NCBI GenBank assembly: GCA_017416765.1
Contig: JAFQBE010000003.1
Coordinates: 199-64,198 of the forward strand
Source of the DNA: Clostridia bacterium
GTDB lineage: Bacteria; Bacillota; Clostridia; Oscillospirales; Acutalibacteraceae
Length of the DNA: 64,000 bases
Direction of reading: 5' to 3'
The position numbers were made by a program, and so were the translations under genes. Position 1 is the stretch's first letter; every line of letters begins with the position of its first letter. Below the pieces are notes generated by a model. That model was not told the DNA's origin. It did not search any database and was given only the letters and a program-made list of their open reading frames with translations. Positions 3,853 to 35,656 of the stretch are shown here, one piece after another.

Positions 3853-3879
3853 TGTAAATTACTCCGCAATTATTTTGGT

Positions 3880-4524: not shown

Positions 4525-4553
4525 TGTTTTATGCGCCCTTTCGGTAAAAATTA

Positions 4554-5848: not shown

Positions 5849-5852
5849 AAAA

Positions 5853-7598: not shown

Positions 7599-7604
7599 TT
7601 TGCT

Positions 7605-20300: not shown

Positions 20301-23300
20301 CCATTTCCAAGGCGAAACCAGATCCTGAGTATCCGCCTGCAATGTAGGAATCCGTATTAGCAACTATACTACCAATTGTAACACCGCCACGTATCATGGT
20401 ATTAGTTTCATTTGCTAATGTAGATTTAAGTGAACCGGATATTACAATATTTTTAAGTAGATCTTTGGGAAGATGAGTTTCTTCTGAGTACTCATAGCAA
20501 AAAGCAGATGTTATGGAACCAATTGCGCCACCAATACAATCTGTACCAATAATACTGCCGTCAAATACACTGTCAGTAATTGAGAGATATTGCGTATAAG
20601 CAACATATTCACTATAAAGATCAATGCCCCTGAAAAATCCAATAAAACCACCTGTACCGACACGCCAATACTCCTGATCGGTATGGTATGGCTCAGAAAC
20701 CACATTCATATCAGCCACTGAAGTAATCTGAGCTGATACAGTGTTATAAGAAAGTTTTAACTGCGTTCCAGTAGATTTATATTGAGTTGCTAAACCAACA
20801 ATACCGCCTGTTGCAGAAAAATATTTTAAAGTCTCATTATCGCATTCAATATAATTGGTGATTATTGTTTGAAAATCGACATCACAATACTTGATATTCA
20901 CATCTGATATGTAAGAATCTCTATATGAATTATAGTTTGCAGTATTAGTACCAAGTATGCCTCCTACACCGAAATCATAAGTTTCTAGTGAATATCCACA
21001 AGGAACACAATCTTTGACAGTAGTAATAACAGATAAAAAAACATCACAATTGTTAATATGCAACACATTACCGATATTAACATATAACATAATGTTAGCG
21101 CCAACTATACCGCCAACAACAACGCCTTCAACCAAACTGTTTTTAAGAACACAGTCAACAAGCGTATCACCTTCTGCCGGACCGTTAACAGCACCGACTA
21201 TGCCGCCAACAACAACATTACGATTCTTGACAGCAGTCGGTGAAGAAATATTGATATCTGTCGCTTTAATTTCTGCATTTTCAACAACTGCATTGCTTAT
21301 AAAACCATATATCTTGCTGACTGCTTCTATCGCATCAGCATTATCATAAGATCTGTATGGACCTACATAACCAGCTATACCACCGATATAAAGTTCGGTA
21401 GTACTGTGGATAGTTGTACCTTTTTCTGAATCTGCAGAAACCTTTACATTTTTTATTGTTGTTTTAGCGTTTGTAGCCGCAACGATACCGCCGGCATTAC
21501 CTGCCGACCTGACAGTAAGATTTGAAACCGTAATATCGAAGTCTGCTTCATCTTCCGGAACTTCTCGGCCAATATTAAGAGAAGATGCAGACATATTTGC
21601 TGCTGTTTCATAATATTTCTGATAAGTACCGATAAGGCCGCCGGCATTAACAGTGGCATAACCATAAACGTTGCCGATACTTGGACCTGCAACAACAATA
21701 TTGCTTGCTGCAACACCATAAACATTTATTGTATGTGCTTCAGTATCGCTTTCTTCAGCTGAACCTATAATAGCGCCGATACCGCCGATAACAACAGCAT
21801 TGTCCTTAAAGAATTTAGCACCATCGGTATATGACGTCTGTACCGTAACACCGTTAAGGGTAACATTATATATATCTGCATCACAGTCTTTCATGCTTGC
21901 TACAACAGCAGCAACACTTTTACCTGTACCGATTGCAGATGAGTCAATTATTTCTACATCATGGATATTGACTTTATCAATGCCTGTACCGACAAGCACA
22001 GCTGTACTGTCGCCGCCTGAAACAGCAAAATCCCTTATTTTCAAATTATATATACCGGAATCAGATGAAACACCGTTAACACTTACACCTTCAGAAAAAT
22101 CAACAGCAGCAAAAAGAGCAGAATTGTCATTGGTACTTGTGATTGTAAGTTCGCTGATTTCGTAATTGTTACCATCAAATATACCTGTGAAAGGATAAGC
22201 GTTAGAGCCTATGGGCGGAATTACAGTATCGCCCATGCGTATATTTGCGTCCAACTTATATGCTTTTGAAAGATAGGTTAAATCTTTATTTTCAGAATCA
22301 GGATTGACTTTGTTGGAAAGCATAACCAAATCTTCTTTGGTAGAAAGGATTATATAGCCGTCCTGTGTTACAAAATCGGAAGATTTTACAAGATATTTTA
22401 CATATGTCTGGAAGCCTGTTTCAAAGTTAACAACTTTAAGATAAACACTGTCACCTGCCTGCGCAGAGGTTGCTGCTTTGACAGTTACATTGAGTTTACC
22501 GTTTTCTACAGTAATACCTTCAATAGTAAATTTATCTGCCTCATATGCAGTTTCATTATTATTACTATCAATATTAATAAGAGAAACCGTAAAGTCGGAA
22601 ACAGAAGCACCTTCAAAGGCTGTGACATGCTGCGGAATATCAACAGTCCATACAAAGTCGCCGCCTGCCATCATGTTCTGAGTAGGTACACTTTCCCCAC
22701 CCCAAAGAGATACGCTTTCCTGCTCAACATTGGAAGCCTTATTGGTTGAAGCAAAGCTAAGCTTTGACCAAACTATATTTTTATAAGCTCTACTATATAC
22801 ACCGGCATGTTTACCAAATACCGCATAAACATATGTAGAACCAATAATACGGGAGCTGATAATACTGTTTGCTATAAGACCGCTGTTCTGTTCAGAATCT
22901 GCAATAAAGGCTGCACGGGAAATTTCGTTGCTGTCCCCAGATACATAAACACTTATTGCATTAACAAAACAATTATCAACAACTACTGCACCGCTGACAT
23001 AAGCAATAAAGCCTGCAACATAGTTTGTTGCACCGAATTTTACAGATACATCGGTTGAGCAGCCATAAATATAACTGTTACCTACTGCGCAATCAATAAA
23101 TGCAGCAGAATATGCAGGTGCTTTTGAAAGGTCTGCGATATAGCCTTCATATACAGTTTCGTCACCGTCATCCGGTGTGGGATCGCCGTCGGAAAGAGCA
23201 ACTTTTACAATTGTGGAATCATATACGGTACCCAAAACAGATTCGTCTATATCTGCTGAAAGCTCAAAATTAAGATTTGATATATAGCCGCCCTTTCTGT

Positions 23301-25659
23301 TGGCTGTATCCAAATTTGGGTCGCTGACTGCATCTTTATAGTACGGACCTTTATCGCGTGTACCGATAACTGCTGTAAATAGCTTTGTATCTGTTGCAAT
23401 AATATTATCGTCACCGTAAATTGAACCTGTAAAGATTGTTTTTGTCCAGGAAGACTCTGTAATAGCAATATCAGTTGTGATCTTATAATTACCGTACGGT
23501 GCAAGATGAATATACTGTGCCATTGCAGTCGACTTGATTTCAAACGGACTGCCTACACCTTTTGAAGGGTCGTAATCGGGATCACCTGTGGCATTGCTTG
23601 TGACAAAAATATCAAGAGCAAATGAAACCGGCAGATTCTGCATTGAAGATGCACCGGCACCTGTTCCCGCAAAATCAAAATCAGCCAAATATGATTTAGT
23701 TATAAGTGTGTTGTTGGAACCCGAACCCGTGTATGAAACATCGTCGCTTACTGTAACAATTGCCGCTGTAGTTCCTTCAATAACATTGAACGCATGTGTG
23801 TTATCTGCTGCATTGAGATTGCCTAAATCGCCACGTTCTACAACAACAGCTCTGTTTGAAGAAACAAGCTTACCGGCAGAAGTTTCAAGGATATAGGGGC
23901 GTCTTGAATCAACAGTATCAGTAAATACGTATGCAGTTGCACATTTACTTATTGCATCAGACCAATAGCAACCGGAAGCTTGGGCAGCATTGCCGCCAAA
24001 ACCGATTACCGCACCTATATACTCCCTTGCAGGATTAATAAGCCTTACAAGCGTATAGCAATTTGAAATTGCCCCGTCAGGTGTGTTACTGTCTGCAAAT
24101 GCAACAATACCGCCGGCATAACCATAGGTTTCGTTGTCTGACAAAAATGAACCTGTAGCAACACAGCCAGAAATTATACCACCGCTAACTATACCGGTAT
24201 TTTCATCTTTTTGTCCTATTGTAACAGCAGCAATACCGCCGTAATAGCCATTGTAAAGTGCTGACTTCATGTATGCACCGACATTATGAACTGTGGAAGA
24301 AACGATTTCGCCATTATTAACAGAAGTTATACCACCGTAATATGCAAAATTTTCACCGCAATCAACACCGCAATAAATATTGTATGATGATGCTGTTGCC
24401 GCCTGAGCTGATGTTACAGAGCCTGTTACGGTAGAGTTATAGACATAACCCTTATTGTAACCGACAAGACCGCCGACATAACCGCCGCCGGTTATATTAT
24501 TTTTGATATCAGCTGTACCTGCAAAATCAACAACACAGTTTTTAATACCATTCTCTGTTCCGCTTGTTTCATTATAACCGACAAGACCACCGATATAATG
24601 ATTGTTACTTGTTATGTTAAGTTTAATTTCGGAAACTGATGATGAATCAACTATGCCGCGGTTCTGTCCTACAAGACCTGCTACATAGTCGTTGCTTGAT
24701 TTTGTCGGGAGATTAACTGTAAAGTTATTTACCTTAACATTCTCGATCCTTGATCTGTTATCGGAAACAGCGGCAGCAATACCGTTGTAAAGAACATATG
24801 TATCAATTGTTACAGAAGAACCATCCGTATTTTCTGAACTGATGTCAGGAGAAACAAGTTCGATTTTACTGTCAACAATTTCACAGTTTGAAATTGTGCC
24901 GGCATTCATGTACGAAATAACAGCCATACGCTTGGGCTGGTCAGATGTTGCAGCAACATTAATGTCTTCAAATATAACATTGCTGATTTCAGATTTTTCA
25001 TTGAGATAACCGAACAGTGCGAAGTTTTCATGGGGTACGCTGATTCGTGTACCTTCACTGCAGCTGATAACATATTTTTTTACATCGCCGTTTTCTTCGT
25101 ACACAATGTTACCCTGCGTATCCCTTACAGTACCATCAAGAATAAAACGCACAACATCGGAAGTCGGCTGTCTGAAATTAGTTGAAACAAGATAGGCATT
25201 ACCGGCTTTTTCAGGGAAGGGCAATTCAACACCTTCTGCAAAAAGAGGTGAAAGATCAATATTAGCACCGAGTCTAAAGTATTTATTTGATGTATCATCA
25301 GCCTGAAGATTGGGGAACTGGGCATTGACAATTTTATTTGCTTCAAGGAAATCGGAAGCATCCATAATAATATAAGGATTCTGCTGTGTACCCTCACCTT
25401 CAAGTGTTATTTCTTCAGCCGCTTGAAGTTGTATTGAAACATCGGAATCAAGAGTAAGTTCACCGCCCTGAACCGAAATTTCAGGTTCGGAGGATTCGGC
25501 ATCAACAGAGGAACCGGAGGCAGATTCAATGGCAGAAAGAGAATTGGCAACGCTGTCCTGGTTTGCGTAAACCAAGAGATTGTATGCACCAGTAGACGAC
25601 AGCAGTAATGCCGTCGCCAAAAGTATTACAAATGAGCGGAATGCCAACCTTTTCTTCAT
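8305..25659 (-). CDS. giant (5,784 aa) secreted GLUG-repeat, beta-helix-type surface/adhesin-like protein
   Basis: Single uninterrupted 17,355-nt ORF; GGAGG 8 nt upstream; Sec-type signal MKKRLAFRSFVILLATALLLSSTGAYNLLVYA/NQ; dozens of GG(L/I)(V/A)G GLUG-type repeats; at least 8 module heads of the form PY-x-I...(N/D)IDL...PIG...PF-x-G-x-(F/Y)DG-x-G(Y/F)-x-I-x-x-L; no LPXTG, SLH, TM or choline-binding tail recognised. Confidence 0.9.
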   Translation of the reverse strand: MKKRLAFRSFVILLATALLLSSTGAYNLLVYANQDSVANSLSAIESASGSSVDAESSEPEISVQGGELTLDSDVSIQLQAAEEITLEGEGTQQNPYIIMDASDFLEANKIVNAQFPNLQADDTSNKYFRLGANIDLSPLFAEGVELPFPEKAGNAYLVSTNFRQPTSDVVRFILDGTVRDTQGNIVYEENGDVKKYVISCSEGTRISVPHENFALFGYLNEKSEISNVIFEDINVAATSDQPKRMAVISYMNAGTISNCEIVDSKIELVSPDISSENTDGSSVTIDTYVLYNGIAAAVSDNRSRIENVKVNNFTVNLPTKSSNDYVAGLVGQNRGIVDSSSVSEIKLNITSNNHYIGGLVGYNETSGTENGIKNCVVDFAGTADIKNNITGGGYVGGLVGYNKGYVYNSTVTGSVTSAQAATASSYNIYCGVDCGENFAYYGGITSVNNGEIVSSTVHNVGAYMKSALYNGYYGGIAAVTIGQKDENTGIVSGGIISGCVATGSFLSDNETYGYAGGIVAFADSNTPDGAISNCYTLVRLINPAREYIGAVIGFGGNAAQASGCYWSDAISKCATAYVFTDTVDSRRPYILETSAGKLVSSNRAVVVERGDLGNLNAADNTHAFNVIEGTTAAIVTVSDDVSYTGSGSNNTLITKSYLADFDFAGTGAGASSMQNLPVSFALDIFVTSNATGDPDYDPSKGVGSPFEIKSTAMAQYIHLAPYGNYKITTDIAITESSWTKTIFTGSIYGDDNIIATDTKLFTAVIGTRDKGPYYKDAVSDPNLDTANRKGGYISNLNFELSADIDESVLGTVYDSTIVKVALSDGDPTPDDGDETVYEGYIADLSKAPAYSAAFIDCAVGNSYIYGCSTDVSVKFGATNYVAGFIAYVSGAVVVDNCFVNAISVYVSGDSNEISRAAFIADSEQNSGLIANSIISSRIIGSTYVYAVFGKHAGVYSRAYKNIVWSKLSFASTNKASNVEQESVSLWGGESVPTQNMMAGGDFVWTVDIPQHVTAFEGASVSDFTVSLINIDSNNNETAYEADKFTIEGITVENGKLNVTVKAATSAQAGDSVYLKVVNFETGFQTYVKYLVKSSDFVTQDGYIILSTKEDLVMLSNKVNPDSENKDLTYLSKAYKLDANIRMGDTVIPPIGSNAYPFTGIFDGNNYEISELTITSTNDNSALFAAVDFSEGVSVNGVSSDSGIYNLKIRDFAVSGGDSTAVLVGTGIDKVNIHDVEIIDSSAIGTGKSVAAVVASMKDCDADIYNVTLNGVTVQTSYTDGAKFFKDNAVVIGGIGAIIGSAEESDTEAHTINVYGVAASNIVVAGPSIGNVYGYATVNAGGLIGTYQKYYETAANMSASSLNIGREVPEDEADFDITVSNLTVRSAGNAGGIVAATNAKTTIKNVKVSADSEKGTTIHSTTELYIGGIAGYVGPYRSYDNADAIEAVSKIYGFISNAVVENAEIKATDINISSPTAVKNRNVVVGGIVGAVNGPAEGDTLVDCVLKNSLVEGVVVGGIVGANIMLYVNIGNVLHINNCDVFLSVITTVKDCVPCGYSLETYDFGVGGILGTNTANYNSYRDSYISDVNIKYCDVDFQTIITNYIECDNETLKYFSATGGIVGLATQYKSTGTQLKLSYNTVSAQITSVADMNVVSEPYHTDQEYWRVGTGGFIGFFRGIDLYSEYVAYTQYLSITDSVFDGSIIGTDCIGGAIGSITSAFCYEYSEETHLPKDLLKNIVISGSLKSTLANETNTMIRGGVTIGSIVANTDSYIAGGYSGSGFALEMVIGDDMSYTFSNIYYSSFAIDTTTFPFMGYCGADKSNNWSNYIPTYFETFSLIVNCYYDVNLKGSDFDNGNVEPQLTDYSSGTEFVGYVFPEVNRGEFRLDTADKNGKKPHWVGSNPSIAIVSDTEYNSLTVTPKNPETIDVSIDYIGSVTDGEGWSYEARLPVGFKFTSTAFVPLQTVNYNGTTYRLITDPIDFKLIKDEALAYNYWLANDIVFTENMFDPTNGMYKGGFTPIGTSSAPFTGTFGSRKDAGNEQFEISGLQLTASADTNKVAGLFGYTQNASFDNFKITDVTSTADVKYAAAVAAVATGSLNATNVTVENAHISGADYTAGLFGGLFSAGQGAISWNISESKLIGERTADSSYTTTIQGDLASAGIVVHTDQNAASIKGVTVSGSAIIQGTENDTDDSTYFDNGAAGIAFAYSGDISANGNKRNTVKDSLVKGEIAAGAVVRTYTSNANDVFSSFSSNTNHASVVAERVSINAVDIFSTIVEGTHIHTADKYSYRTISSAGIIARVDAPSVNHTVTDCTLDEQTTVKAPYGVGGIVGCFEAPTDTSKIRVYNIVIDSCNTSATVTATESDNTKITDTISNLYYNMGAGGIIGSLSKDTYLSGIHISNCHVGGTISGDSAVGGLVGAIWTSGMIVDEAKFNEMNHHFAENCVISASFKNLAGEDSFVKKTTTTGIVVGYIYDFEANPSNGVMVSGSSFSGYTNQPFFNIYYSGYKYQSGSAYLFGVLKPVQSGNDNSANTKSGLTDYIYDINSYEADKENEPGIKNHTINEQTRALTFGEQYRIKHKDYDYEENITPINSLLFATGYPVAMSDFSFDALPQNVPDNDLNYIFDSAASINGFTVSAVNKGGTDTALEQTAVLMPESVKTDSNKISVKAAEGGYILAPADGVTLTETVEFNLVFTYSNGMELAAAFVVEVSGNDYYRYENTYFVFNASNLYSTIEKVNASSTIIQCYDIFCAIENNNPLITSADTYAENVTLSQVMSAEDLALLAASVHPNPKFEAGVDERTEIDIEEYLGVTDLANVKLSKLVDGVSATQYGTYTENSSDHFDLDFAGDYRVLSAVAVDNINSTGLTQAGDYFSIYGFESHDDVNVTAQGEDAEKSGFFNSLNGATVTGLTFVNPKIEVIGSRDAENFVGVLAGSAVGATITDVSVERIGTQGEAYVMSLRQMIPASTNVGGIVGSADAATKINNCSVSGLDVIGATLAGNTSGKLYTVKVGGIAGSSAAEIVDASVSDSRILAERYDRFRNTYVSYAGGIAAWATGNITNAEVNNTQLRDATCSVNVTGTTAAGSYVANADDHELVADRIGGIVAHSYGNVNIASAKLHGVSITAFDTAGGIIGEIENDDEAVVNITNSNVGDYAVAGSNADIRVLSSSNLSTSNLRQFYNVAGGIVGKVDNLASLNINGSGFSGYVGTYSYDNLNKDCTAGGVIGYISEQLENISSLTVVDTTVSGEVSGFRSGKTAPAFEPYLGAAGGYIGKIRSTVSDAGETPLVSHGVMSAEVNLYTNSTGTMVDATNATVKDPQSVSTNVGKLLGFAIEGNNFATSAEDLTAYFENIYVSSYPQDIIAYGCKDFYGQKNTAETYTDINVATYTYTEDGTTYTENGKSFMVGTSEDISISPADDKYSSSALIPLDTENIGEEGVSASRHFRLVYNDIKFKSDNTSSDVISYNKENGAHIVLNEGETSAVISIDNYEKPYGTLTISQVKEDIIGDLVLTYSYGLEVGIRLITVEIEGMGEEDDPYLISTPKHFDVVRALPDAYYKQVNNIDLAPQYGYSTTVTSPLWKDGQGFEPIGTKQIPFIGSYDGGGYLITNLYINRSSDYAGLFGCVGSGAELKNIHIELAGPMTVNTNPENFNITADLVGGITANSYVGGLAGRVNNATVTNCSVVKGNVIGDTALGGLIGESAGATIDSCFISTTVYSKLTGKEYSGQNKNAGALVGFVSGTTSVSGSFTFGYVSLGVKESNDERIYGAVGGLAGYVGTNAKLEISDVFVGASVSDSNGINFYKGLTIGGSNTQRSDITAKNVRISAAVAATQVGDTDKINPVLGVLGGVTVPDDAKGSVIYDADLMGIAAEQAVVDEQGNPIVDENDEVVTEWVTVVSDESGVTPASGEDFSLNGVNLAANAGTDAYTLAYVELAKLQVDPSAKEITDRQNNTLYKDGLFYPVTVMGEGIIASSSRFDTSDNLDDYPSEMDTELYGDGKDKSIRNTDLLFENVQGGIKVYINIFKEDAEKYTGEVLKNGEMFYNDRVPYFVVTDSAPVTVDDTSVELYRKVVYPVQVRNDSIGRIYPISTERQLNSIGIKATDEYGKVIDTKFVALTPDKSYTFTDDIVLGNYKFNPIPDYSGRFEGNGFKLSNLNIEASDNTGFIGTMLGGSLSNMVLEIGTVSGGNNVGALVGSIQPAEGKTVNITNCSVSHLMKDKESADGETAEKEPVGSGVIGSNNVGGLVGYAKGGTGSIISHSFTQVTVSGTNVVGGLVGYNEMAVDNSYATGDVNSSITGTYSGTHGIGGLVGVSNGSAAVISSSFSSSAVDVGLNDGMTYITSSEYGVGGLVGHVGDGAQLSGVFSSGGVRYSYSDGDSEDDNETGSSVELPSCQSLTLGVGGLVGVLGSSTLNVYSSASVAAKFGDVSAASAVGAGGLFGVIKAGVEYGYSSGSTLAEPRMKDYSSANYGVGGVIGVIAGGVSAKHLRYDLNVSAIEYDAETDASQGSVGKVISGSFDNAAQATTAQFIDGSSLQSELGGSVFGYTPGAYPYLKALFNENVSRTIQFNALLSVVAIELNPLDQMAAEGKGISMAMNIPTEVTHNGTAYTFGFEADNTQQGSAKAIVDPNTNTLSVQRSSNKAEQANFIITIETVGGQKVDPSDGVVYSTVASRPLSRICAQMLGTDDYPFLVASQEDMKHVAMTSNELTATAAADPESLYLEWNEPLDANTDSNDTKVYYRMMGNVYLDGTYTRPVGFAALAHGYSFDGNGYFVHGLRETLADTVNESSVITNVTFKDTVFSEGESLVGNLDGIVRGVNVFSMPVNEKNTDGTLKYTHTKSSGNNVAGIAQTVNKNGIIEGCVVNLDWEGTANDSFAGIALTNNGTIAMSASVGDITGSANSAAAFVGENNNTISTCFTMGDILLDSPTSSVSGFVGTNNSAITNCYTRCNIIVRGENSGLNAGSFAANNGTNGTINACYAAGLFTVDNAGTTHVFVGHNDGSINDSMFDKQMSGSSFADDFYLAERTLEVATLSNMNIMVKGAYVVSDNAGKTAVIDGVETVVDIEYPQLKAILDTKVLEETGEADKDGNKIKEETEQSLMYRTLRSYSNLSSAGAMVNNDNYIDYLPYGTDTVISSKFIWKMADESVAEMDDFAGGGKYFTTNNKAASTIISVRNPDITNKPDLGIEIEEYHSYTKEESKIYDTYNLHITVNNNPNPNFSGGNGTEETPYIIATKEQVVALSYYGSNPDSYFIIGEVTDAEGNDIDDITNGALDMTGTDWGAYIDLFSANLDGRGYTLSNVTIPPEGDNALIGVIDGGNISNLGIAGISITVPEGNTDAAGMLAAKAMNNTSTITNCVVVGTVTGPDGKAATSEYIGGLIGDAQGPVIIDGCVVSGKVVNSEGSAGGVIGKAENGVSVTNSLSTVLVDGGNSAVGGIIGSGPANTTDSVSVSNTVFAGNVNGATVGNIAGDGKNITVTNSYYDKQLSMVAAEENGVTAASTHYLTTALVSDFVSTMGRINSFSGYPVPAAIASGENYGDAFMNAVKLASAKISFVNGTGAGTSKVFTGVAADDWGAIMTVSGDTVKYFGATTSGTSLKADTSSLALGETAEGEFTYTLADTSLVRYIDFTLGKTVKAVQYKLKDSGIADSSKAIISVVTGVGEGKSAATIFDSTANYAESYESICNNMIFAYDEELEAYTFTVTAQLDEKLIAEDIDVKFDNVNVSADIIKNQNGSFTVVIGSEATTELVNFTTVSIDITAVEEAWGVHKLVSFF

Positions 25660-25750: not shown

Positions 25751-27883
25751 TTAATCCTCGTTGTTTTTTAATGCCTTTGCTTTTTCAGCAGCCTTTTGCT
25801 TAGCTGCTCTTTCTTTTTCCTTTTGTTTTGCTTTTGCAGCTTTCTCTTTTTCAGCTTGTAAAGCTTTTTCCCTTGCAGCCTTTTCTTTTGCCTTCTGTTT
25901 TGCCTTGGCTGCCTTTTCTTTTTCAAGCTCTAAAGCGCGCTGTTTAGCCATTTTTTCTTTTTCCTTGGCTTTTTGAGCTGCGGCTTTTTCTTTTTCAGCC
26001 TGTAAAGCTTTTTCCTTTGCTGCCTTCTCTTTAGCCTTCTGCTTTTCAGCAGCTTCTTTTATTTTTTGAGCTTCAAGAGCTTTTTGCTTGGCTATTCTTT
26101 CTTTTTCTTTCTGTTTAGCCTTCGCAGCCTTTTCTTTTTCAGCTAAAAGTGCTTTTTCTTTAGCAGCTCTCTCTTTTGCCTTGAGCTTTTCAGCTGCTTC
26201 TTTAGCTCTTTGAGCTTCCAGAGCCTTTTGCTTTTCTATGCGCTCTTTTTCCTTTGACTTGAGTTTTGCTTTACGCTCCTTTTCAAGCTGTAAAGCTTTT
26301 TCCCTTGCCAGCTTTTCTTTTGCTTTTTGTTTAGCTGCACGCTCTTTTTCTTTAGCAGCCTGTTGTGCTGCAAGCTCTTTTTGTTTTTTCTGCTCTGCAA
26401 GAAGAGCTGCTTTTCTTGCTTTTTCTTCTTCAAGTGCTTTGAGCTTTTCCTGTCTTGCCTTTTCTTTGGCAATTCTTGCTTTTTCTTTTTCCTTAGCCTG
26501 TCTTTCAAGCTCCTGCTCACGCAGCTTTGCTTTTCTTGCGCGCTCTTTTTCTTTTGCCTTGCGCTCTTTTTCGAGTGCAAGTTCTTTTTCCTTCTTTGCT
26601 TTGAGTCTTGCCTTTTCTTTTGCTTTTCTTTCCTTTTCCAAAGCAAGCTCTTTTGCAATACGAGCCTTTTCGCGTTCCTTACGACGCTTTTCAATTTCTT
26701 TCTGACGCTGAATCTCAGCCTGAATCTTAGCTTCAATTTCAGCCTTACGCTCGTTTTCAGCCTTCAATGCGCGGTCGATAGCTTCATTAATCTTGGTTTC
26801 TCCCGCGGTCTTCTTCTTGTTGGCTCGTTTAAGCTCATCAACAAAAATTCTTCTTATCTCAACTTCTTCCATATCGTAGTTGAGAACAAGCTCTTCTGCA
26901 AGGCGCTTGAGAAGTTTCGGCTTAACCTTACGCTTTTTAAGCTTTGCTTCTTCAAGTTCCTGCTCACCTATATTCTTTTTAAGGAGCATATAGTTAACGC
27001 TTGCCAATTTGAACAAGTCGTTTTTATAATCGTCGGGAACCATTTCGTTGGACTCTTTGGCTGTAATTTCATAACCTACTTCATCATAGGAAGAAATAAA
27101 CTGCCAGAGATTAAGACAAGCACGGAAATTTGGGTCCTTCTGAATAACATTTGTACGCATAATCGGAGGACGGACCGGAGTACAGTGCTCAAGATCACGC
27201 ATAAAGGATGAACCACAGAAACCGTTTACAACTCGCTTGATTCTTTCAATTCTTGCAAGTGCGCTTACATTTTCGTCACCGGGTTTCATATCTTCAGCAC
27301 TCATTGTTGCAGTAGTTTGTGTTGCTACTTCCAATTTATAAGTAATTGTTTCATGACCGCGCTTTATTTCACTGTTCATGCTGAGCGATGATTTCTTTTC
27401 ATCCTGCTCCATATTGAAAAGAACATTATAACGCGTATCAATAAAGTGTCTGAGATTTCTGAGAAGTGTGAAGATAAAACGGTTTTCATAAATTTCAAAG
27501 CTTTCTTCACGGAAAACGTTAAGAATCTGGCTGGGAGTAACGCGGTCGCCGTCAACACGGGCAATCATACTGGTGTGCTGTGCAAGGTGACGGACAGATT
27601 CAGCTGTAATTTTTCTTGCACGCTCAATGGGAACGATTTCTTCTTCCTGAACGATGAACTTACGGGGGTTACGCACAATCGTATCGAGTGCAACTGTACA
27701 AGCTTCAATAGCTTCAACCCATTTAAGGTCAATCTTCTTTTCAAAGAAACGATTGAACATAGAAATTTCATGCTTGCCGCTTTCCATAGCTTCAAGCATA
27801 TCGCTGTAGTAATCATCACTGCCAAAAAGTGATAATGTACCTGCCTGATATTCGTTGTAAAGGTCTTCATATGAAGTTCCCAT
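25751..27883 (-). CDS. McrC-like (DUF2357-type N-domain) protein lacking a nuclease domain, fused to a ~340-aa K/E/A-rich helical tail
   Basis: Directly downstream of the McrB-like gene; motifs SFEIYENRFIFTLLRNLRHFI and TNVIQKDPNFRACLNLWQFI; C-terminal half is an uninterrupted KEKA-type repeat with no Pro or Gly; start set at ATG 27883 (AAGGAG 9 nt upstream; the track ORF begins at a TTG). Confidence 0.6.
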   Translation of the reverse strand: MGTSYEDLYNEYQAGTLSLFGSDDYYSDMLEAMESGKHEISMFNRFFEKKIDLKWVEAIEACTVALDTIVRNPRKFIVQEEEIVPIERARKITAESVRHLAQHTSMIARVDGDRVTPSQILNVFREESFEIYENRFIFTLLRNLRHFIDTRYNVLFNMEQDEKKSSLSMNSEIKRGHETITYKLEVATQTTATMSAEDMKPGDENVSALARIERIKRVVNGFCGSSFMRDLEHCTPVRPPIMRTNVIQKDPNFRACLNLWQFISSYDEVGYEITAKESNEMVPDDYKNDLFKLASVNYMLLKKNIGEQELEEAKLKKRKVKPKLLKRLAEELVLNYDMEEVEIRRIFVDELKRANKKKTAGETKINEAIDRALKAENERKAEIEAKIQAEIQRQKEIEKRRKEREKARIAKELALEKERKAKEKARLKAKKEKELALEKERKAKEKERARKAKLREQELERQAKEKEKARIAKEKARQEKLKALEEEKARKAALLAEQKKQKELAAQQAAKEKERAAKQKAKEKLAREKALQLEKERKAKLKSKEKERIEKQKALEAQRAKEAAEKLKAKERAAKEKALLAEKEKAAKAKQKEKERIAKQKALEAQKIKEAAEKQKAKEKAAKEKALQAEKEKAAAQKAKEKEKMAKQRALELEKEKAAKAKQKAKEKAAREKALQAEKEKAAKAKQKEKERAAKQKAAEKAKALKNNED
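25790..26380 (-). repeat. 144-nt (48-codon) imperfect tandem repeat inside the K/E-rich coding region
   Basis: The motif CAGC(C/T)TGTAAAGC and its variants recur at 25852, 25996, 26140 and 26284, exactly 144 nt apart; protein units look like KAKEKAAKEKALQAEKEKAAKAKQKEKERIAKQKALEAQKIKEAAEKQ. Confidence 0.75.
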
Positions 27884-27982: not shown

Positions 27983-29578
27983 TTACATCATCTTCTGAAG
28001 TCTTTCGAGATATTCCTTAGATTCGCTCATGTTAGACTTACCGAAGTGTTTGTTCAGGTATGTGATAAGACCCTGGATTTCATCGCGGATGAAAGAAAGG
28101 TTGAGTGATTCAAACTTACGAAGAATCTTATGACAGAGAACGAAATCAAGACCGTCGATTTCTGTACCACCGCAGCCTACATACGCGGGAACAAAATCCT
28201 GCAGCTGCTTAACGATACGGTTACCGAATGCAAGACGGAAATGTTCAATAACATAGTCGTCAAGTTCTGCAAGCTTGCGAAGGCTTTCTTCGGAAACCTT
28301 ATATTTCTGCTTACATTCATCAAACATTGATTCGAGATGCTTGTAGCTGAGTGTAAGGTTATCGGTCCAGGGAGCCTCAAAGAACTTACCCTTTGTGTTA
28401 ATATCAATCGGGATAGCACGGTCATAAACCTTATCGGTAACGGCGAAGGTCGAGTCGTCGTTATTGATTGTGCCGATGTACCACATGTTGTCGGGAAGCT
28501 TGAGCTTACCGTCGAACAGATGCTTGGGGTCAGTAGGCCATACGGAGGGAACAAGAGAAACAATCCATTCGTCACGGCTGGGCATTTCGAGAATTGAAAG
28601 CATTTCAGCGAAATAGTACTCAACACGTGCGATATTCATTTCGTCGAGGATGGTAAGATAAATATCTTCTTTGTATGTAGCTTCATACATCTTTTTGAGA
28701 ACTTCAGTTTCGTTGAAGCGCTTGGTAAATTCGTTGAAGTAACCGAAAAGCTCGGTACGGTCACGCCATGACGGCTGAACGGAAGCGATAATAGCATCGT
28801 TCTGGAGGAACTTACCGAAAGAGTACGGAAGTGAAGTTTTACCTGTACCGGAAATACCCTGAAGGATAATCAGACGGGTTGAAGCAAATGCAGCAAGGAA
28901 AAGACGAAGGGTTCTGTGTTCATAGTAAAGACCCATACGGGAAGCTGCAAAGTTACGGTACATATCAATAATACCGGGAAGTGTGATTTCGTTATTATAT
29001 TCGGGCGGCTCATAGCCCTCCATTTCGATATCAACCTGCGTGAGTTTGTAGAAACGGCTATAGTCATCCGCTGTTCTTTCATCTACACCGTCAGCAGTGG
29101 TTGTTGTTTCGCCTTCTTCACCTTCAGCTGCAGCAACTGCCGCACCCGAAGAACCGTCTACAGCGGATTCGAGATAGGGGTTTTCGCCGGGACGAAGACC
29201 GAGCTGAGAAACCTTCATAGCAAGGATTTTATCCTTTTCAATTGAAAGCTTCATAATTTCGCGGTTGAGAGTGGCAACTTCATTGAGAAGCTCTTCCTGA
29301 TTAACAACCGTTTTACGGAAACGGATGTACTTCTTGATAAGAAGGGCAAGAAGTACAATAATGCCTGCAAGAAGTGCAAGCACAAGCAAGCAACAAAGTG
29401 CACCGAGGATAATACCGCCAACACCTAAAGTACCTGCATACTCTCTGAAAATTCTGACATATTTCGGAACATTGAAAATATTTGCAATGCCAAGACCGAA
29501 GCCTTTGATTATTCCCCAGAAGCCTTTAACAAAAAGCTGGTCAAGGAAATCACCGAGAAACTGGAAAATACCGCTCAT
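27983..29578 (-). CDS. membrane-anchored McrB-family AAA+ GTPase
   Basis: TM at aa 51-81 followed by KKYIRFRK; Walker A GISGTGKTS, Walker B LTILDEMN plus IARVEYYFAEMLSILE, and WYIGTINNDDS (NxxD box), as in McrB-type AAA_5 domains; AGGTGG 8 nt upstream of the ATG. Confidence 0.75.
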   Translation of the reverse strand: MSGIFQFLGDFLDQLFVKGFWGIIKGFGLGIANIFNVPKYVRIFREYAGTLGVGGIILGALCCLLVLALLAGIIVLLALLIKKYIRFRKTVVNQEELLNEVATLNREIMKLSIEKDKILAMKVSQLGLRPGENPYLESAVDGSSGAAVAAAEGEEGETTTTADGVDERTADDYSRFYKLTQVDIEMEGYEPPEYNNEITLPGIIDMYRNFAASRMGLYYEHRTLRLFLAAFASTRLIILQGISGTGKTSLPYSFGKFLQNDAIIASVQPSWRDRTELFGYFNEFTKRFNETEVLKKMYEATYKEDIYLTILDEMNIARVEYYFAEMLSILEMPSRDEWIVSLVPSVWPTDPKHLFDGKLKLPDNMWYIGTINNDDSTFAVTDKVYDRAIPIDINTKGKFFEAPWTDNLTLSYKHLESMFDECKQKYKVSEESLRKLAELDDYVIEHFRLAFGNRIVKQLQDFVPAYVGCGGTEIDGLDFVLCHKILRKFESLNLSFIRDEIQGLITYLNKHFGKSNMSESKEYLERLQKMM

Positions 29579-29611: not shown

Positions 29612-30481
29612 TTATTTATTTTCGCTGTCGTTTATTTCGTTTTGCTCTGTCTGCTGCTCTTCTGCAGCCTTTTGCTGTGCAAGGAACTCCGCGATAATTG
29701 CTTTTATCTTTGCTTCCTCTGCTTTTTCTTTTTCAGCCTGTTCAAGTTCTTTCTGCTTGGCTAAATATTCTTCGATAATCATTTGTTTTCGTGCTTCTTC
29801 TTCCTGCTGTTTTCTCAGGTATTCCTGAATAATAGCGTCTTTTTCGCTTTGAGCCGCAGGAGGGTAATACTGCGGCGGTACATTGTATGCCACAGCAGGC
29901 TGCTGATTGCCCTTTTTATCGAGGGCCAGCGAACGAAGATAGCCGAAAAGCTGCCATATAACTATTAATGCAGCGGGCAACACAATAAGGAGCATAACAC
30001 CTTGTGATGTTGCGGCAAAATCAAAGAATGCGCCAAGCTTTTCAACTCGTTTGCCTTGATACTGACCAAGAATTTTAGAGGAGGTAACATGTTTTTTATC
30101 GGGCTGGTCTGCATTATCGCCTTTTGTAACGTAGCTGACCGAACCGTTGCTTTCGATTACATCGTAAACCCTGTGGGTATTGATATACATTGAACCCGTT
30201 TTATCGTAAGCGAGGAAAGAAATTATATCGCCCACTTCATACCGATGGGTTTTAGGGTAGCGCTTAATGATAATCAAATCGTCGGGAAAGAATTCGTCTT
30301 CCATCGAATCACTCTGAACGGAAAGGAACGAATATCCGCCGAGATTTGCAACACCGGTTGACGATTTAACCGAAATTATAACCACCGCACAAATTACGAT
30401 TGAAAAAACTAATATCACAGATGAAACCACATTCATCGCGATATGAAATATTCTGTTGTCCAAAATATTGGCTTTTTTCAT
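29612..30481 (-). CDS. SipW-type (S26B) signal peptidase I with a ~105-aa charged C-terminal cytoplasmic tail
   Basis: VQSDSMEDEFFPDDLIIIK, NTHRVYDV and KGDNADQPD boxes; second TM GVMLLIVLPAALIVIWQLFGYL; tail carries three (A/M)II-x-E(Y/F)L-x-(K/Q)Q motifs. Confidence 0.8.
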   Translation of the reverse strand: MKKANILDNRIFHIAMNVVSSVILVFSIVICAVVIISVKSSTGVANLGGYSFLSVQSDSMEDEFFPDDLIIIKRYPKTHRYEVGDIISFLAYDKTGSMYINTHRVYDVIESNGSVSYVTKGDNADQPDKKHVTSSKILGQYQGKRVEKLGAFFDFAATSQGVMLLIVLPAALIVIWQLFGYLRSLALDKKGNQQPAVAYNVPPQYYPPAAQSEKDAIIQEYLRKQQEEEARKQMIIEEYLAKQKELEQAEKEKAEEAKIKAIIAEFLAQQKAAEEQQTEQNEINDSENK

Positions 30482-30527: not shown

Positions 30528-31400
30528 TTAAGCTGCGGGTTCTTCTTCACTTGATGAACCGAAGGAGATTTTAGCTGAAAGGTGCTTTGCGGAAAGCTTT
30601 TCACCTGTACAGTCAGCATCGTTACCTTCAATCCAGATGCGTACTATGATTTCATCAGAACCGGTATTACCGGAAATCTGCGGAAGCTCAAAAGTAGCTT
30701 CGTACTTGTTGATTTCTGCTTCGCTCGCTGTAAGCTGACCAACAATATTCTGAGTTGAAACATAAGAACCATTGAAGTTAGCATCTTCAGAATCAAGAAT
30801 GCTGTTGTTGTTTGAATCCTTAACAGTTGCAGCAGGAAGTTCGTTTGTAACAACTGCCTGTGCGCTGTCGCCTTCCATGGCGAATACTGTTGTCTGACCT
30901 TTATATGTAACTGAAACACGGGCTGCTTCAACAGCTGCGTTATCGCCATCGCGACCTGTAAGGGCGATGTTCATTCTGCCGTCAACAGTTTCTGTTGTTG
31001 TGGAACGGATTTTGATTGTAAGTTCGTTATAATCGCTGCCCTTTTCGGGTGTAAGGGAAGCGAAGTAGCCGCCTTCAAGACCGACCTTTGTGAAAGCTGC
31101 ACCGTCAGCGCTTGAAACAGGAGAATAGCTGCCGTCTTCTGCTATAAGCTCACCTTCTGCGAAACAGTCTCTCTGGAGATATGCGCCCCATTCAACTGTC
31201 TCTGTTTCTTCTGCGCCCATGTGAGCATGACCAGCGGAACCCTGAATTTCAATACCACCGCCGGCTTCAATAACATCGAAGCCCAGGTCGAACAGCTCTG
31301 CGAAGCCACCGACAAGGAACCAGGCGTATGTACCGGATACCATTGTTGTTGCGGCAACGATAAGAACGATGATAGACATTCCTAATTTGCGTTTTGCCAT
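30528..31400 (-). CDS. TasA-like fibre subunit candidate with SipW-cognate signal
   Basis: MAKRKLGMSIIVLIVAATTMVSGTYAWF signal; C-terminal VRIWIEGNDADC motif shared with 32909-33712 and 33845-34717. Confidence 0.7.
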   Translation of the reverse strand: MAKRKLGMSIIVLIVAATTMVSGTYAWFLVGGFAELFDLGFDVIEAGGGIEIQGSAGHAHMGAEETETVEWGAYLQRDCFAEGELIAEDGSYSPVSSADGAAFTKVGLEGGYFASLTPEKGSDYNELTIKIRSTTTETVDGRMNIALTGRDGDNAAVEAARVSVTYKGQTTVFAMEGDSAQAVVTNELPAATVKDSNNNSILDSEDANFNGSYVSTQNIVGQLTASEAEINKYEATFELPQISGNTGSDEIIVRIWIEGNDADCTGEKLSAKHLSAKISFGSSSEEEPAA

Positions 31401-31648: not shown

Positions 31649-32617
31649 TTATTTATCAGATTCTTCGGCGGCTTTTTCGGCTTCCTGCTGTGCGAGGTAT
31701 TCAGCGATAGCCTGTTTTTTGAGTTCTTCCTCTTTAGCGGCCTTCTCAGCGGCAGCCTTTTCAGCCTCCTGCTGTTTGATATATTCTTCAACAGCCTTTT
31801 TCTTTATTTTCTCTTCTTCGGCTGCTTTTGCGGCGGCAGCTTTTTCAGCCTCCTGCTGCTTGATATATTCTTCAACAGCTTTTTTCTTTATTTCGTCTTC
31901 TGTTTCTTCCTTCTTTTCGGGTTCAGCCGGAGCCTGTGGCTTTTCTTCCGGCGCTTTTGCGGGAGCGGAATTGCTTTCAGCCTGATGTGCCTGAATTTCA
32001 GCCATCAAGCGCTGCTTGATTTCTTCTTCCGCATCCTTAACAGCAGCAACAGCTTTTTCTTTCTTTGCGTCCATAAGAGTTGAAATAAACTTGAACAGTT
32101 CAAAGAAGAAGAATATAGCGGTCGGAATAACTACGCAAAGCATGAAACCGAGCTGTGACTGGAGAAAATCCATTATTGTACCGAGTTTCGGAATTGCTAT
32201 ACCAGTCCAAACACCTATGATACTTTCACAGTTGATCGGGAACTCATCATGAGTAACGGTATTATCACCTTTAGTGGTATAATAGTTGTATGAACCATGC
32301 CATTCTTTTTCAATAATTCTATGGGTATCATAGTACATCTGCTGTTCATAATATGCAGTATATGTTACTACATCACCTACATTCAAATCATTAGCTTGGT
32401 CTCTATCCAATAATTCAATTACAATCAAAGAACCAACTGGAAAGCCTTCCGGTCCTTCCATTGAATCCGTTTGAACAGACATTATTGCCTTACCGAACAA
32501 ATTAGGAAGTTTTGCATCTCCTACCGTTGATGAAATAACTAATACAGTCATAACTATTGAAAATATTAAAATAATGGTTACAAAAACATTTCCAACAATT
32601 TTTCCTACTTTTTTCAC
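31649..32617 (-). CDS. SipW-type (S26B) signal peptidase I with a ~140-aa charged C-terminal cytoplasmic tail
   Basis: VQTDSMEGPEGFPVGSLIVI, DTHRIIEK and KGDNTVTHDEF boxes; second TM LGFMLCVVIPTAIFFFFELF; start set at GTG 32617 (GGAGG 9 nt upstream); the track ORF starts at a TTG at 32680. Confidence 0.8.
   Translation of the reverse strand: MKKVGKIVGNVFVTIILIFSIVMTVLVISSTVGDAKLPNLFGKAIMSVQTDSMEGPEGFPVGSLIVIELLDRDQANDLNVGDVVTYTAYYEQQMYYDTHRIIEKEWHGSYNYYTTKGDNTVTHDEFPINCESIIGVWTGIAIPKLGTIMDFLQSQLGFMLCVVIPTAIFFFFELFKFISTLMDAKKEKAVAAVKDAEEEIKQRLMAEIQAHQAESNSAPAKAPEEKPQAPAEPEKKEETEDEIKKKAVEEYIKQQEAEKAAAAKAAEEEKIKKKAVEEYIKQQEAEKAAAEKAAKEEELKKQAIAEYLAQQEAEKAAEESDK
31753..31894 (-). repeat. 84-nt tandem duplication within the peptidase tail coding region
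   Basis: 31753-31810 and 31837-31894 are near-identical (about 3 mismatches in 58 nt); they encode KKKAVEEYIKQQEAEKAAA twice. Confidence 0.8.
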
Positions 32618-32711
32618 TAAATTATTCCTCCGGATATTTAAAATTTGGGAGCAACTGTCATTTCGATTTTGATTATTCAATCAATATCCAAATCGCACCT
32701 GCTCAATCGGA

Positions 32712-32908: not shown

Positions 32909-33712
32909 TTATTTTGCAAGGTTAAGGCTAAGAGTGATGTTATCTGTATTTACAAGACCGAAACAGTCAGCATCCTGACCTTCTGCCCATACAAATACAT
33001 CGAAGGAAACCTTATTTGTTTCGCCTGTTGCACCTTCAGCAAATGTGTAGCTGATTGTCTGAGTAGCAGCTTCGCCAACTGTTACAGCTGTGCCAAGTGC
33101 AAGACCGTCGGTAGAAGCAGCAGCTTCTGATGCATCGATAATACCATTAGCGGGAATAGCGGAGTCAGCAGCTGTACCTGCAGCACCGATGGGTGTGTAG
33201 GTGTTGTCCTTAGCACCGAACAGTGTGTATGCACCGTTGTTAAGCATTGCACCGTAAACATAACCACTTGCAGATGTGAGAGTGGGAGTTACTGTAACTG
33301 TACAAGGAACTTCAGCATAAAGATAAACTGTGAACTTAATGTACTTGCCGTTAAGCTGGTCAGCAGATGCTTCAGAAGCATTGAGAACAGAGATTGCTGA
33401 ACCCTCAGCCTGAGCAAGGTTAGCGTTGAACCACTTCTTAGCAGTTACATCAAAAGAAACAGGAGTAAGGGCAGCGGGGAAGCTGTTGCCTGTAACAGCA
33501 CTGAGTGAAGTCTGTTCAAGGCTTGTGCCCCATGTGCCTGTTGCGCCTGTTGCTGAGATGTAGATAGAACCTGCATCGTTAGCTGTTGTTGCGGAAATGC
33601 CTGTAACAGAAGCTGTGTTAGCTGCTGCGAACCAAGCGTAGGTTGATGATGTGAGAACTATTGCAGATACCATGAGCATCGCAAGAGCTGCCACGAGTGA
33701 ACGTTTTTTCAT
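32909..33712 (-). CDS. TasA-like fibre subunit, candidate major subunit (SipW-cognate signal)
   Basis: MKKRSLVAALAMLMVSAIVLTSSTYAWF signal; mature part is very rich in A/T/S/G and poor in charge; C-terminal VFVWAEGQDADC motif; start set at ATG 33712 (GGAGG 8 nt upstream); structured spacers on both sides. Confidence 0.75.
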   Translation of the reverse strand: MKKRSLVAALAMLMVSAIVLTSSTYAWFAAANTASVTGISATTANDAGSIYISATGATGTWGTSLEQTSLSAVTGNSFPAALTPVSFDVTAKKWFNANLAQAEGSAISVLNASEASADQLNGKYIKFTVYLYAEVPCTVTVTPTLTSASGYVYGAMLNNGAYTLFGAKDNTYTPIGAAGTAADSAIPANGIIDASEAAASTDGLALGTAVTVGEAATQTISYTFAEGATGETNKVSFDVFVWAEGQDADCFGLVNTDNITLSLNLAK

Positions 33713-33844
33713 AGTTTTTTCCTCCATTTAAGAGTTAGTGTTTTTTTAGGGATTAGAAACACATTTTATCCAAAGTGTTTCGGACTTTATGCGGGGTTAA
33801 TCAAACGCTGTGACAAGGAAAAGCTTTATTAAGTCTCCCCCAAC

Positions 33845-34717
33845 TTATTGGGCTTCTTTGTCGAGAACCTCAAGGTTCATCTTGAGTTTGACTTCACCTC
33901 CCATAATGTCGTTAACACATTCAGGATCTTCGCCTTCCAGCCAGACGACGACAGTATATCTGTCACTTTCGTCTACCTTGAAGTTTCGGCGGATATGTTC
34001 CATGACTACCGTATCGGAGACAAAGTTTTTATCCGCTTCGAATGTTTCCTTTTTGTTTTCGGTACCTACCTGCGGTTTTGCGTAAACCGTAGGCTTACCG
34101 TTTATGAAAACCATGACGCGTATTGCTTCGTCAGCACCCTTGTAGGCTGTGACTACTTCAAGACTTGCCAGGTAATCAACCGTTGCATCCTCTCCGCCCG
34201 GAATTTCTTCGCCGGCGTTACGCACCGCAAAGGTATAGGCGAGGTAGTTGGTGCCGTTATGGTCACCGTAGACTTTATCAATTGCTTCGTAGCTTTCGTA
34301 AACCGGGTCATCACCAAGCTCACCGTTCTGGTTGAGTAGCCAATGCTTTGTTATGTTATCCATGTTTTCGATTGCCGAGCCGTAAAGCTGAAGCGTGGGA
34401 TTTTCAAACTTTTCGTTATCTGCAAGCTGGATACCGTAGAGGTTGCCCGCCATGCTGACCGTAAAACGGCCTGCGCTGTTGATAACCGAGGTACAGGCAT
34501 AGCCTATAGCAAGCAGTATCAACAAAATGCCGACGATAATAGCAAGAATACGGATTAACCAATTGCGCTTATAAACTTTTTCGGCAGAGGTATTAACATC
34601 GTACTTATCCATGCCGTCCGGACTGAGTGCCGGTATGTAAGGACCGCTGGCGCCGGGAACGAAGCCGTTGTTTACGGGCTGCTCGGCTGCGGCGGTTTCT
34701 TTTTTCTTTTTAGCCAT
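33845..34717 (-). CDS. membrane-anchored protein with a TasA-like extracellular domain (anchor/nucleator candidate)
   Basis: Cytoplasmic N-terminus MAKKKKETAAAEQPVNNGFVPGASGPYIP, TM WLIRILAIIVGILLILLAIGYA, C-terminal VVVWLEGEDPEC motif; start set at ATG 34717 (GGAG upstream); the longer track ORF reads into a hairpin repeat. Confidence 0.65.
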   Translation of the reverse strand: MAKKKKETAAAEQPVNNGFVPGASGPYIPALSPDGMDKYDVNTSAEKVYKRNWLIRILAIIVGILLILLAIGYACTSVINSAGRFTVSMAGNLYGIQLADNEKFENPTLQLYGSAIENMDNITKHWLLNQNGELGDDPVYESYEAIDKVYGDHNGTNYLAYTFAVRNAGEEIPGGEDATVDYLASLEVVTAYKGADEAIRVMVFINGKPTVYAKPQVGTENKKETFEADKNFVSDTVVMEHIRRNFKVDESDRYTVVVWLEGEDPECVNDIMGGEVKLKMNLEVLDKEAQ

Positions 34718-34750
34718 ATTTATCAACTCCGATGAATTAATTCGGGTTAT

Positions 34751-34777
34751 GCGGACGGCCATTGACCGCCCCTACGA
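34751..34777 (-). repeat. single copy of the GC-rich hairpin repeat
   Basis: GCGGACGGCCATTGACCGCCCCTACGA, between the EAL gene stop and the next start. Confidence 0.75.
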
Positions 34778-35583: not shown

Positions 35584-35656
35584 TGATGCCTGACCCCTTT
35601 GCAAATTAATTATTTATATATAATTATTATATATGAAGATAAAAATACACAGTAGA

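Follow-up and report, generated by a model that had tools for sequence, protein, structure and literature searches.

A membrane-anchored McrB-type GTPase encoded beside SipW-type signal peptidases in Clostridia

The McrB-like gene and its neighbours

Textbooks present McrB as the GTP-driven motor of a restriction enzyme acting on DNA. We describe here a protein of the McrB family that carries a membrane anchor instead of a DNA-reading domain, encoded in a 64,000-nt stretch of contig JAFQBE010000003.1 from a Clostridia bacterium (hereafter the window, to whose positions all coordinates refer). Its gene belongs to a row read entirely from the minus strand, in the order EAL-domain protein, 'm' protein, 't' protein, SipW-type signal peptidase, another 't' protein, another SipW-type peptidase, McrB-like GTPase and a partner with the N-terminal domain of McrC (Table 1). 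The original prediction, made from the sequence alone, had placed the open reading frame (ORF) at 27983-29578 without stating its strand, and had located it between a signal peptidase gene and genes for a partner and a giant protein. The boundaries were exact and the neighbours are as described: a SipW-type enzyme upstream and, downstream, a DUF2357 protein followed by an ORF of 5784 aa. A Shine-Dalgarno-like AAGGTGG lies 8 nt ahead of the ATG at 29578; a plus-strand reading of the same interval was rejected, its frame being full of stops.

The first 215 residues of the McrB-like protein consist of an amphipathic segment, a transmembrane (TM) helix, a coiled coil and an acidic linker, and hold no DNA-binding reader. 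The TM helix is a strongly hydrophobic segment (aa 52-81) whose 19-residue Kyte-Doolittle mean reaches 3.35, unmatched elsewhere in the protein, and is followed by KKYIRFRK. In the next stretch (aa ~92-128), hydrophobic residues are spaced 3-4 apart over about five heptads (~35 residues), and a Thr-rich, acidic linker occupies aa 130-172. These elements, and the replacement of the DNA reader by an anchor, are those of the original prediction. A Pfam search of the protein, N-terminal 215 aa included, matched no domain. In section 7 of their paper, Bell, Sahakyan, Makarova, Wolf and Koonin (eLife 2024, PMC11090510) describe 'another large clade' of McrB GTPases, in the branch with an NxD signature, that is fused to an FtsB-like TM and coiled-coil domain, and the TM helix and heptad stretch seen here probably represent that module. 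Profile matches to FtsL models stayed below threshold (FtsL_Actino, E=0.009; FtsL_2, E=0.094), so that homology of this module to FtsB or FtsL could not be established.

Judged by sequence comparison, the protein belongs with McrB and not with other AAA+ clades, as had been proposed. This identity derives from NCBIfam, PDB and PADLOC searches, Pfam being silent. When all PDB sequences were searched with phmmer, E. coli McrB alone matched the core (6hz4, 6ut6 and 7vsr; E=1.3e-6 to 2.8e-6), with 6hz4 in first place (E=1.3e-6, aa 217-434); the NCBIfam McrB model matched at E=2.8e-7. A profile built from 34 diverse relatives also retrieved McrB from the PDB (E=1.1e-5), other AAA+ proteins scoring E>=0.1 and in the Walker A region only. 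Eleven columns are invariant among the 34 relatives: G241, G244, G246, K247, T248, D312, N315, N372, D374, S376 and T377. All motif peptides quoted in the original prediction are present in the translation, that is, Walker A GISGTGKTS, Walker B in the context LTILDEMN-IARVEYYFAEMLSILE, and WYIGTINNDDS (GTINNDDST). The observed architecture is far above chance expectation.

One detail of the original prediction needs revision. The signature had been taken as NxxD, the canonical McrB hallmark, and an aspartate does stand at the fourth position (N372-N-D374-D375); 'NNDD' can be read as NxxD because the fourth residue happens to be D in this protein. In a census of 150 representatives of 50%-identity clusters, drawn from 8252 matches at E<=1e-3, the motif could be located in 133. 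All 133 have N-x-D; D follows it in 102 of them, E in 27, Q in 2, and G and A in 1 each. The family motif is GT[AI]N-x-D-[DE]-ST, and on these alignments the family signature is N-x-D-(D/E), not NxxD. According to the same section of Bell et al. (PMC11090510), NxD is 'usually followed by E or a second D'.

The partner gene, directly downstream, probably starts at the ATG at 27883. Its Pfam DUF2357 match (E=5.9e-12) reaches 45.8 bits against a gathering cutoff of 23.3. Searches of the partner with Pfam, with PADLOC and against PDB sequences revealed no nuclease, and none is listed among the 50 best matches that Foldseek gave for the model of its first 348 aa; Pfam and NCBIfam likewise found no nuclease domain in the scanned proteins of the locus. 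Across related loci the partner ranges from ~360 to 1245 aa in length, which suggests that its charged tail grows and shrinks quickly.

The peptidases upstream are part of a larger set: the window holds five SipW-type paralogues with NCBIfam (SipW, sigpep_I_arch) or Pfam peptidase matches (29612-30481, 31649-32680, 7026-7598, 6551-7069 and 5363-5896, all on the minus strand). All five keep SM...THR...GD motifs, which we take to be the catalytic Ser, His and Asp residues of SipW. The two upstream copies bear long charged cytoplasmic tails. In the copy next to the McrB-like gene, a C-terminal TM helix precedes a charged cytoplasmic tail of ~100 aa; the other copy holds a three-fold 'KKKAVEEYIKQQEAEKAAA' repeat.

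The 't' proteins are candidate substrates of these enzymes. Their family shares an invariant T-x-A-W-F signal motif (T24, A26, W27, F28) and a W-x-EG-N-D-x-x-C end motif. The AlphaFold2 model of the 't' protein at 30528-31400 has a mean predicted local distance difference test score (pLDDT) of 85.9 and a predicted template modelling score of 0.81; its best PDB match is the TasA fibre (8aur_A, E=1.7e-3, probability 0.77), with the archaeal bundling pilus 7ueg in sixth place. The model thus suggests a TasA-like protein. The two 't' proteins are 21% identical and have the end motif W-x-EG-x-D-x-x-C in common. This motif recurs in the 'm' protein, which aligns with the 't' family in hhalign (probability 96%, E=4.8e-9) and could be the membrane-anchored base subunit of a putative fibre. 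At the head of the row, the EAL protein has motifs that look degenerate: YATSVR for EALxR, NISE for ELTE and DDVGVE for DDFGTG. Because of this degeneracy, the protein may bind cyclic di-GMP (c-di-GMP) instead of hydrolysing it.

Table 1. Features of the locus, given as window positions
Feature	Position	Strand	Basis
McrB-like AAA+ GTPase with N-terminal membrane anchor, 531 aa	27983..29578	-	ORF; PDB, NCBIfam and family-profile matches
TM helix of McrB-like protein, aa 52-81, then KKYIRFRK	29336..29425	-	Kyte-Doolittle
Short heptad (coiled-coil-like) stretch, aa 92-128	29195..29305	-	hydrophobic spacing
AAA+ core, aa 217-434, aligned to E. coli McrB	28277..28930	-	phmmer and profile alignments
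Walker A GISGTGKTS	28832-28858	-	McrB-like core sequence
Walker B LTILDEMN	28634-28657	-	McrB-like core sequence
NxD(D) signature	28454-28465	-	McrB-like core sequence
Partner: McrC N-terminal domain (DUF2357), ~335 aa, and K/E/A-rich tail, ~380 aa	25751..27889	-	Pfam DUF2357
Imperfect tandem repeats of 72/144 nt coding the partner's charged tail (24/48 aa)	25790..26323	-	Tandem Repeats Finder
SipW-type signal peptidase directly upstream of McrB-like gene	29612..30481	-	NCBIfam SipW E=3.3e-35, sigpep_I_arch E=6.8e-23
'T' protein ('t'), TasA-like candidate fibre subunit, SipW-type signal SGTYAWF, predicted beta-sandwich	30528..31400	-	AlphaFold2 and Foldseek
Second SipW-type signal peptidase, repetitive charged C-terminal tail	31649..32680	-	NCBIfam SipW E=5.8e-30
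Second 't' protein, paralogue of 30528-31400, SipW-type signal SSTYAWF	32909..33727	-	alignment
'm' protein: cytoplasmic N-terminus, one TM helix, extracellular domain; anchored paralogue of 't'	33845..34762	-	hhalign
Stand-alone EAL-domain protein, head of gene row	34786..35604	-	NCBIfam EAL phosphodiesterase models down to E=1.1e-26
Strong promoter-like site TTGACA-17-TACAAT ahead of EAL gene	35685-35657	-	sequence
Giant secreted protein, 5784 aa, signal peptide, directly downstream of partner	8305..25659	-	ORF and sequence
Downstream extension of locus	2439..8273	-	NCBIfam and Pfam peptidase matches, sequences
Three further SipW paralogues	7026-7598, 6551-7069, 5363-5896	-	NCBIfam/Pfam
Proteins with SipW-type signals or a signal-peptide-like N-terminus	7605-8273, 5853-6554, 4554-5366, 3880-4524	-	sequence
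Two K/P-rich anchored proteins	2983-3852, 2439-3023	-	sequence

Conservation of the gene row

The McrB-like protein has more than 8000 homologue clusters. Among the matches listed, identity is 69-95% and the alignment almost always extends over 98-100% of the query; where a source is named, the entry is nearly always a 'hypothetical protein' in metagenome-assembled genomes (MAGs) of Clostridia. When one genome per species was scanned, at least 593 carrier species emerged. The best 80 of these carry labels of Acutalibacteraceae, Ruminococcus, Christensenellaceae, Lachnospiraceae, Bacilli, Erysipelotrichaceae and others, with a few bins labelled as other phyla; the closest among these 80 is an Acutalibacteraceae MAG (93% identity), and the surveyed loci span 53-93%. 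Named carriers that are not MAGs include Ruminococcus flavefaciens MC2020, Ruminococcus sp. FC2018 and Eubacterium ruminantium FB3002. Plasmid and phage collections contained no full-length relative and only AAA+ cores of at most 38% identity. One such core, unannotated, lies on the human-faecal 'Bacteriophage sp.' contig MT835511.1 (39956-41104) and is 35% identical over query aa 179-488.

Gene order was compared at 83 related loci, drawn from many Bacillota families, with flanks of up to 10 kb. The hydrophobic segment, whose status as a membrane helix was a point at issue in the original prediction, is conserved as a TM helix on McrB in 83/83. A SipW homologue is present at 82/83 loci and a DUF2357 partner adjoins McrB at 79/83, the gap between the two genes having a median of 44 nt. 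Homologues of the 'm' protein were found at 63/83, of the 32909-type 't' protein at 50/83 and of the EAL protein at 38/83. Anchored McrB genes recur beside SipW and TasA-like genes, a pattern that the original prediction had raised, and the usual order is EAL, anchored TasA-like, TasA-like, SipW, McrB and McrC-N. Linkage of the McrB-like gene to SipW is obligatory; linkage to the 't' and 'm', EAL and giant genes is frequent. At the 57 loci where SipW lies directly upstream of McrB, the peptidase as a rule combines two TM helices with a charged tail in the cytoplasm, whose length has a median of 67 aa and a maximum of 370 aa.

Relatives farther removed are anchored by 2 or by 3-4 TM helices or lack them altogether. 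A search started from the 3-4-TM class yielded 80 metagenome loci: SipW stands just upstream of McrB in 54/80, and a profile built from the 1-TM class detects the partner downstream in 45. Since the arrangement recurs in both the 1-TM and the divergent 3-4-TM loci, the conserved core of the system is the triad of SipW, anchored McrB and McrC-N. The 3-4-TM sister class (loci L085-L164; representatives P0157-P0263) is large and lies between SipW and DUF2357 genes. Another NxD class, of 700-870 aa and devoid of TM helices, is probably CoCoNuT-like. A single 646-aa homologue (P0085, L003:10001-11941) shows an internal duplication of ~125 aa spanning the NxD region, which may be genuine or may stem from the assembly.

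The variety of anchors bears on a first alternative, namely that the protein is a cell-division, sporulation or envelope-remodelling factor, with an FtsB/FtsL-like module that recruits the enzyme to the divisome and a connection with secreted proteins that is secondary. The module is called FtsB-homologous by Bell et al. in the section cited (PMC11090510), the weak FtsL-like matches given above point the same way, and the high conservation would fit a housekeeping role. However, that similarity is sub-threshold and could reflect generic TM and coiled-coil composition, related clades swap the module for 2-4 TM helices while keeping SipW and the partner, and the conserved row contains no division or sporulation genes. 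We regard a divisome role as highly improbable.

A second alternative arises from the gene that follows the partner. The giant protein contains dozens of G-rich, GLUG-like 'GGLVG/GGIVG' repeats, its sole Pfam match being a borderline one to GLUG (E=8e-4). The module could mainly serve this protein and not a pilus, as a GTP-dependent gate, chaperone or anchor for the export, processing or surface retention of adhesins several thousand residues long, the small proteins with SipW-type signals being accessory or anchoring. The position of a 5784-aa signal-peptide protein directly after the partner speaks for this, as does its N-terminus SSTGAYNLL, which loosely resembles a SipW-type signal. A homologous giant ORF follows the partner at 11/83 loci and further ORFs of at least 1500 aa occur at ~20 more, these counts being lower bounds because the flanks end at 10 kb. 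Yet in many loci a giant ORF is missing despite full 10-kb flanks, in contrast to the near-universal SipW and partner genes, and the 80 loci found from the 3-4-TM class showed no ORF of at least 1500 aa. Service to the giant protein as the main task thus appears unlikely.

The McrBC ancestry of the GTPase raises a third alternative, anti-phage defence, in which a membrane-associated McrBC derivative would sense infection at the envelope and trigger abortive infection or membrane damage. CoCoNuTs, the nearest described relatives, are predicted defence systems in the section cited (PMC11090510), AAA+ cores of 35-38% identity occur on plasmids and on the one faecal phage contig, and the PADLOC defence-candidate model PDC-M26A matches the AAA+ core at E=1.3e-39. 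That match is confined to the core, however, in two stretches of which the best aligns aa 214-337 with profile positions 312-436 of 724; the partner has no match in PADLOC, so that a full-length match of both PDC-M26 components is lacking, and our literature search found no paper mentioning PDC-M26. Neither a nuclease nor any other effector domain turned up in the partner or among the neighbours scanned, and the synteny with SipW and secreted-protein genes is strictly conserved. Identities of 69-95% among the matches listed and 53-93% among the surveyed genomes are unlike those of typical defence genes. Nor do close homologues stand next to McrC genes with a nuclease, the defence-island setting that the original prediction had weighed against its own proposal. 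The genes outside the locus in the window are of the housekeeping kind (Lon, an EngB-like GTPase, phosphoglycerate kinase, cofactor-independent phosphoglycerate mutase and a pyridoxal phosphate-dependent decarboxylase of the ornithine/diaminopimelate/arginine family), and plasmid and phage collections gave no full-length copy. Conserved synteny, lack of an effector, high conservation and housekeeping context disfavour both the divisome and the defence explanations, and we give the latter very little credence.

Possible role and comparison with known systems

From the gene context we infer that the McrB-like protein and its partner probably form a cytoplasmic GTP-driven module, coupled to the SipW-dependent processing and assembly of TasA-like fibres and acting on envelope proteins, not on DNA. 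This agrees with the original prediction, which had favoured a role in envelope assembly or secretion over restriction. In McrBC, according to the summary by Bell et al. (PMC11090510), the N-terminal domain of McrC enters the hexamer of McrB, whose GTP hydrolysis it stimulates. By analogy, the AAA+ domains would assemble into a hexamer on the cytoplasmic side of the membrane, and the N-terminal domain of the partner would act as a plug in the ring and turn on its GTPase activity. The TM helix, together with the coiled coils and charged tails of McrB, partner and SipW, would tie the GTPase to the peptidase, and nucleotide hydrolysis in the cytoplasm would gate or drive the cleavage of TasA-like subunits as well as their release and polymerisation. 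Display of the giant protein outside the cell might be driven too, and the degenerate EAL protein may provide a c-di-GMP input.

Several results, together with the PADLOC match to the core, weigh against this reading. The similarity of the 't' protein to the TasA fibre is marginal, the Foldseek E-value given above being accompanied by a TM-score of 0.25-0.31, and neither Pfam nor NCBIfam has a match for the protein. For the partner, AlphaFold2 modelled the N-terminal 348 aa with a mean pLDDT of 75.7, and although the top PDB matches of this model in Foldseek are McrC chains, they are not significant (6hz4_M, E=0.07; 6ut6_G, E=0.19). As neither the partner's sequence nor a profile of its N-terminal domain matched any PDB sequence and hhalign found nothing against E. 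coli McrC (probability 0.07%), the link between partner and McrC rests on Pfam DUF2357 and the weak Foldseek top match. The tail of the partner is missing from the ~370-aa partners at loci labelled Bacilli or Erysipelotrichaceae, and is therefore not essential to the core mechanism. Finally, the literature that we found on the class to which we assign the locus amounts to a single predictive paragraph, with no experiments.

That class was named CoCoPALM by Bell et al. (PMC11090510), who linked the clade to signal peptidases in one paragraph of section 7 and deferred its analysis to a forthcoming paper. Our literature search found no further paper that uses the name or ties McrB to SipW or TasA. 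Matched against the published description, not against accessions, the locus appears to be a CoCoPALM member. It has an NxD-type McrB GTPase; a TM helix and a coiled coil at the N-terminus in place of the DNA reader, with FtsB homology that is here sub-threshold only; adjoining genes of the signal peptidase family; coiled coils on both the McrB (aa 92-128) and the McrC homologue (in the tail of ~380 aa); and a McrC cut down to its N-terminal DUF2357 domain. No feature of the locus contradicts membership. Because the architecture had already been described in 2024, novelty is less than first thought: the idea of an envelope role is not new, and the locus is a further member of an uncharacterised class. 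What goes beyond the published paragraph are the five SipW paralogues, the 't' and 'm' proteins, the degenerate EAL gene, the giant protein and the sister classes with 2-4 TM helices.

Comparison with better-known relatives delimits the class further. Like canonical McrBC of E. coli (6hz4, 6ut6), the locus encodes an AAA+ GTPase core with Walker A, a DExN Walker B and a sensor-1 Asn signature, followed immediately downstream by a DUF2357 partner. It differs in having a TM helix and no DNA-binding domain, NxD(D/E) instead of NxxD, a partner with no detectable PD-(D/E)xK nuclease, and no restriction or defence setting. CoCoNuTs, as presented in the same paper (PMC11090510), share the NxD branch, coiled-coil fusions and McrC homologues that often have no active nuclease. 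Their GTPases, however, have long soluble coiled coils and are always tied to HEPN or other nucleases, whereas the locus in the window combines a membrane anchor with SipW and secreted-protein neighbours, no nuclease having been found.

On the side of the putative substrates, the row resembles the SipW-TasA system of Bacillus subtilis and the archaeal bundling pili (8aur, 7ueg): a SipW of the endoplasmic reticulum/archaeal type is encoded beside secreted beta-sandwich proteins, with a 'GTxAxF'-type signal, and the TasA fibre is the best, if marginal, structural match of the 't' protein. To our knowledge, the Bacillus tapA-sipW-tasA operon encodes no nucleoside triphosphatase. The row in the window, in contrast, holds an AAA+ GTPase pair, and its SipW genes are multiplied, with copies that carry charged cytoplasmic tails. 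Type IV pili and type II secretion offer an analogy only: membrane pre-subunits, a dedicated peptidase and a membrane-tied, cytoplasmic hexameric NTPase. There is no homology between these parts, the motor being of McrB type as opposed to PilB/GspE type and the peptidase of SipW type as opposed to PilD type, and the subunits differ as well, beta-sandwich here and alpha-helical in pilins.

A bolder version of the envelope reading, which we advance tentatively and consider doubtful, would make the triad a previously unrecognised and widespread engine for assembling surface filaments or adhesins in gut and rumen Bacillota. A restriction-derived GTPase would be coupled to SipW, to TasA-like donor-strand fibres and to the display of giant proteins under c-di-GMP control, as an analogue of the type IV pilus ATPase built from unrelated parts. 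A clade with membrane anchors, no DNA reader and no nuclease, locked to a signal peptidase, would be a case of an AAA+ restriction motor put to new use in building the envelope. With matches in at least 593 species genomes and more than 8000 protein clusters, chiefly of Clostridia from gut and rumen, the class is abundant; the giant surface proteins beside it could shape microbiome adhesion and biofilm formation, and the named carriers that are not MAGs make the envelope hypothesis directly testable.

Genes of the downstream extension

Beyond the giant gene the row continues with three of the SipW paralogues, interspersed with genes for proteins that have SipW-type signals or a signal-peptide-like N-terminus (Table 1). 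It ends with two genes (2983-3852 and 2439-3023) of which the surveyed loci contained no homologues. Both encode proteins in which a lysine-rich N-terminal tail precedes a TM helix. The first is also proline-rich and has weak TonB-like matches, owing to its composition.

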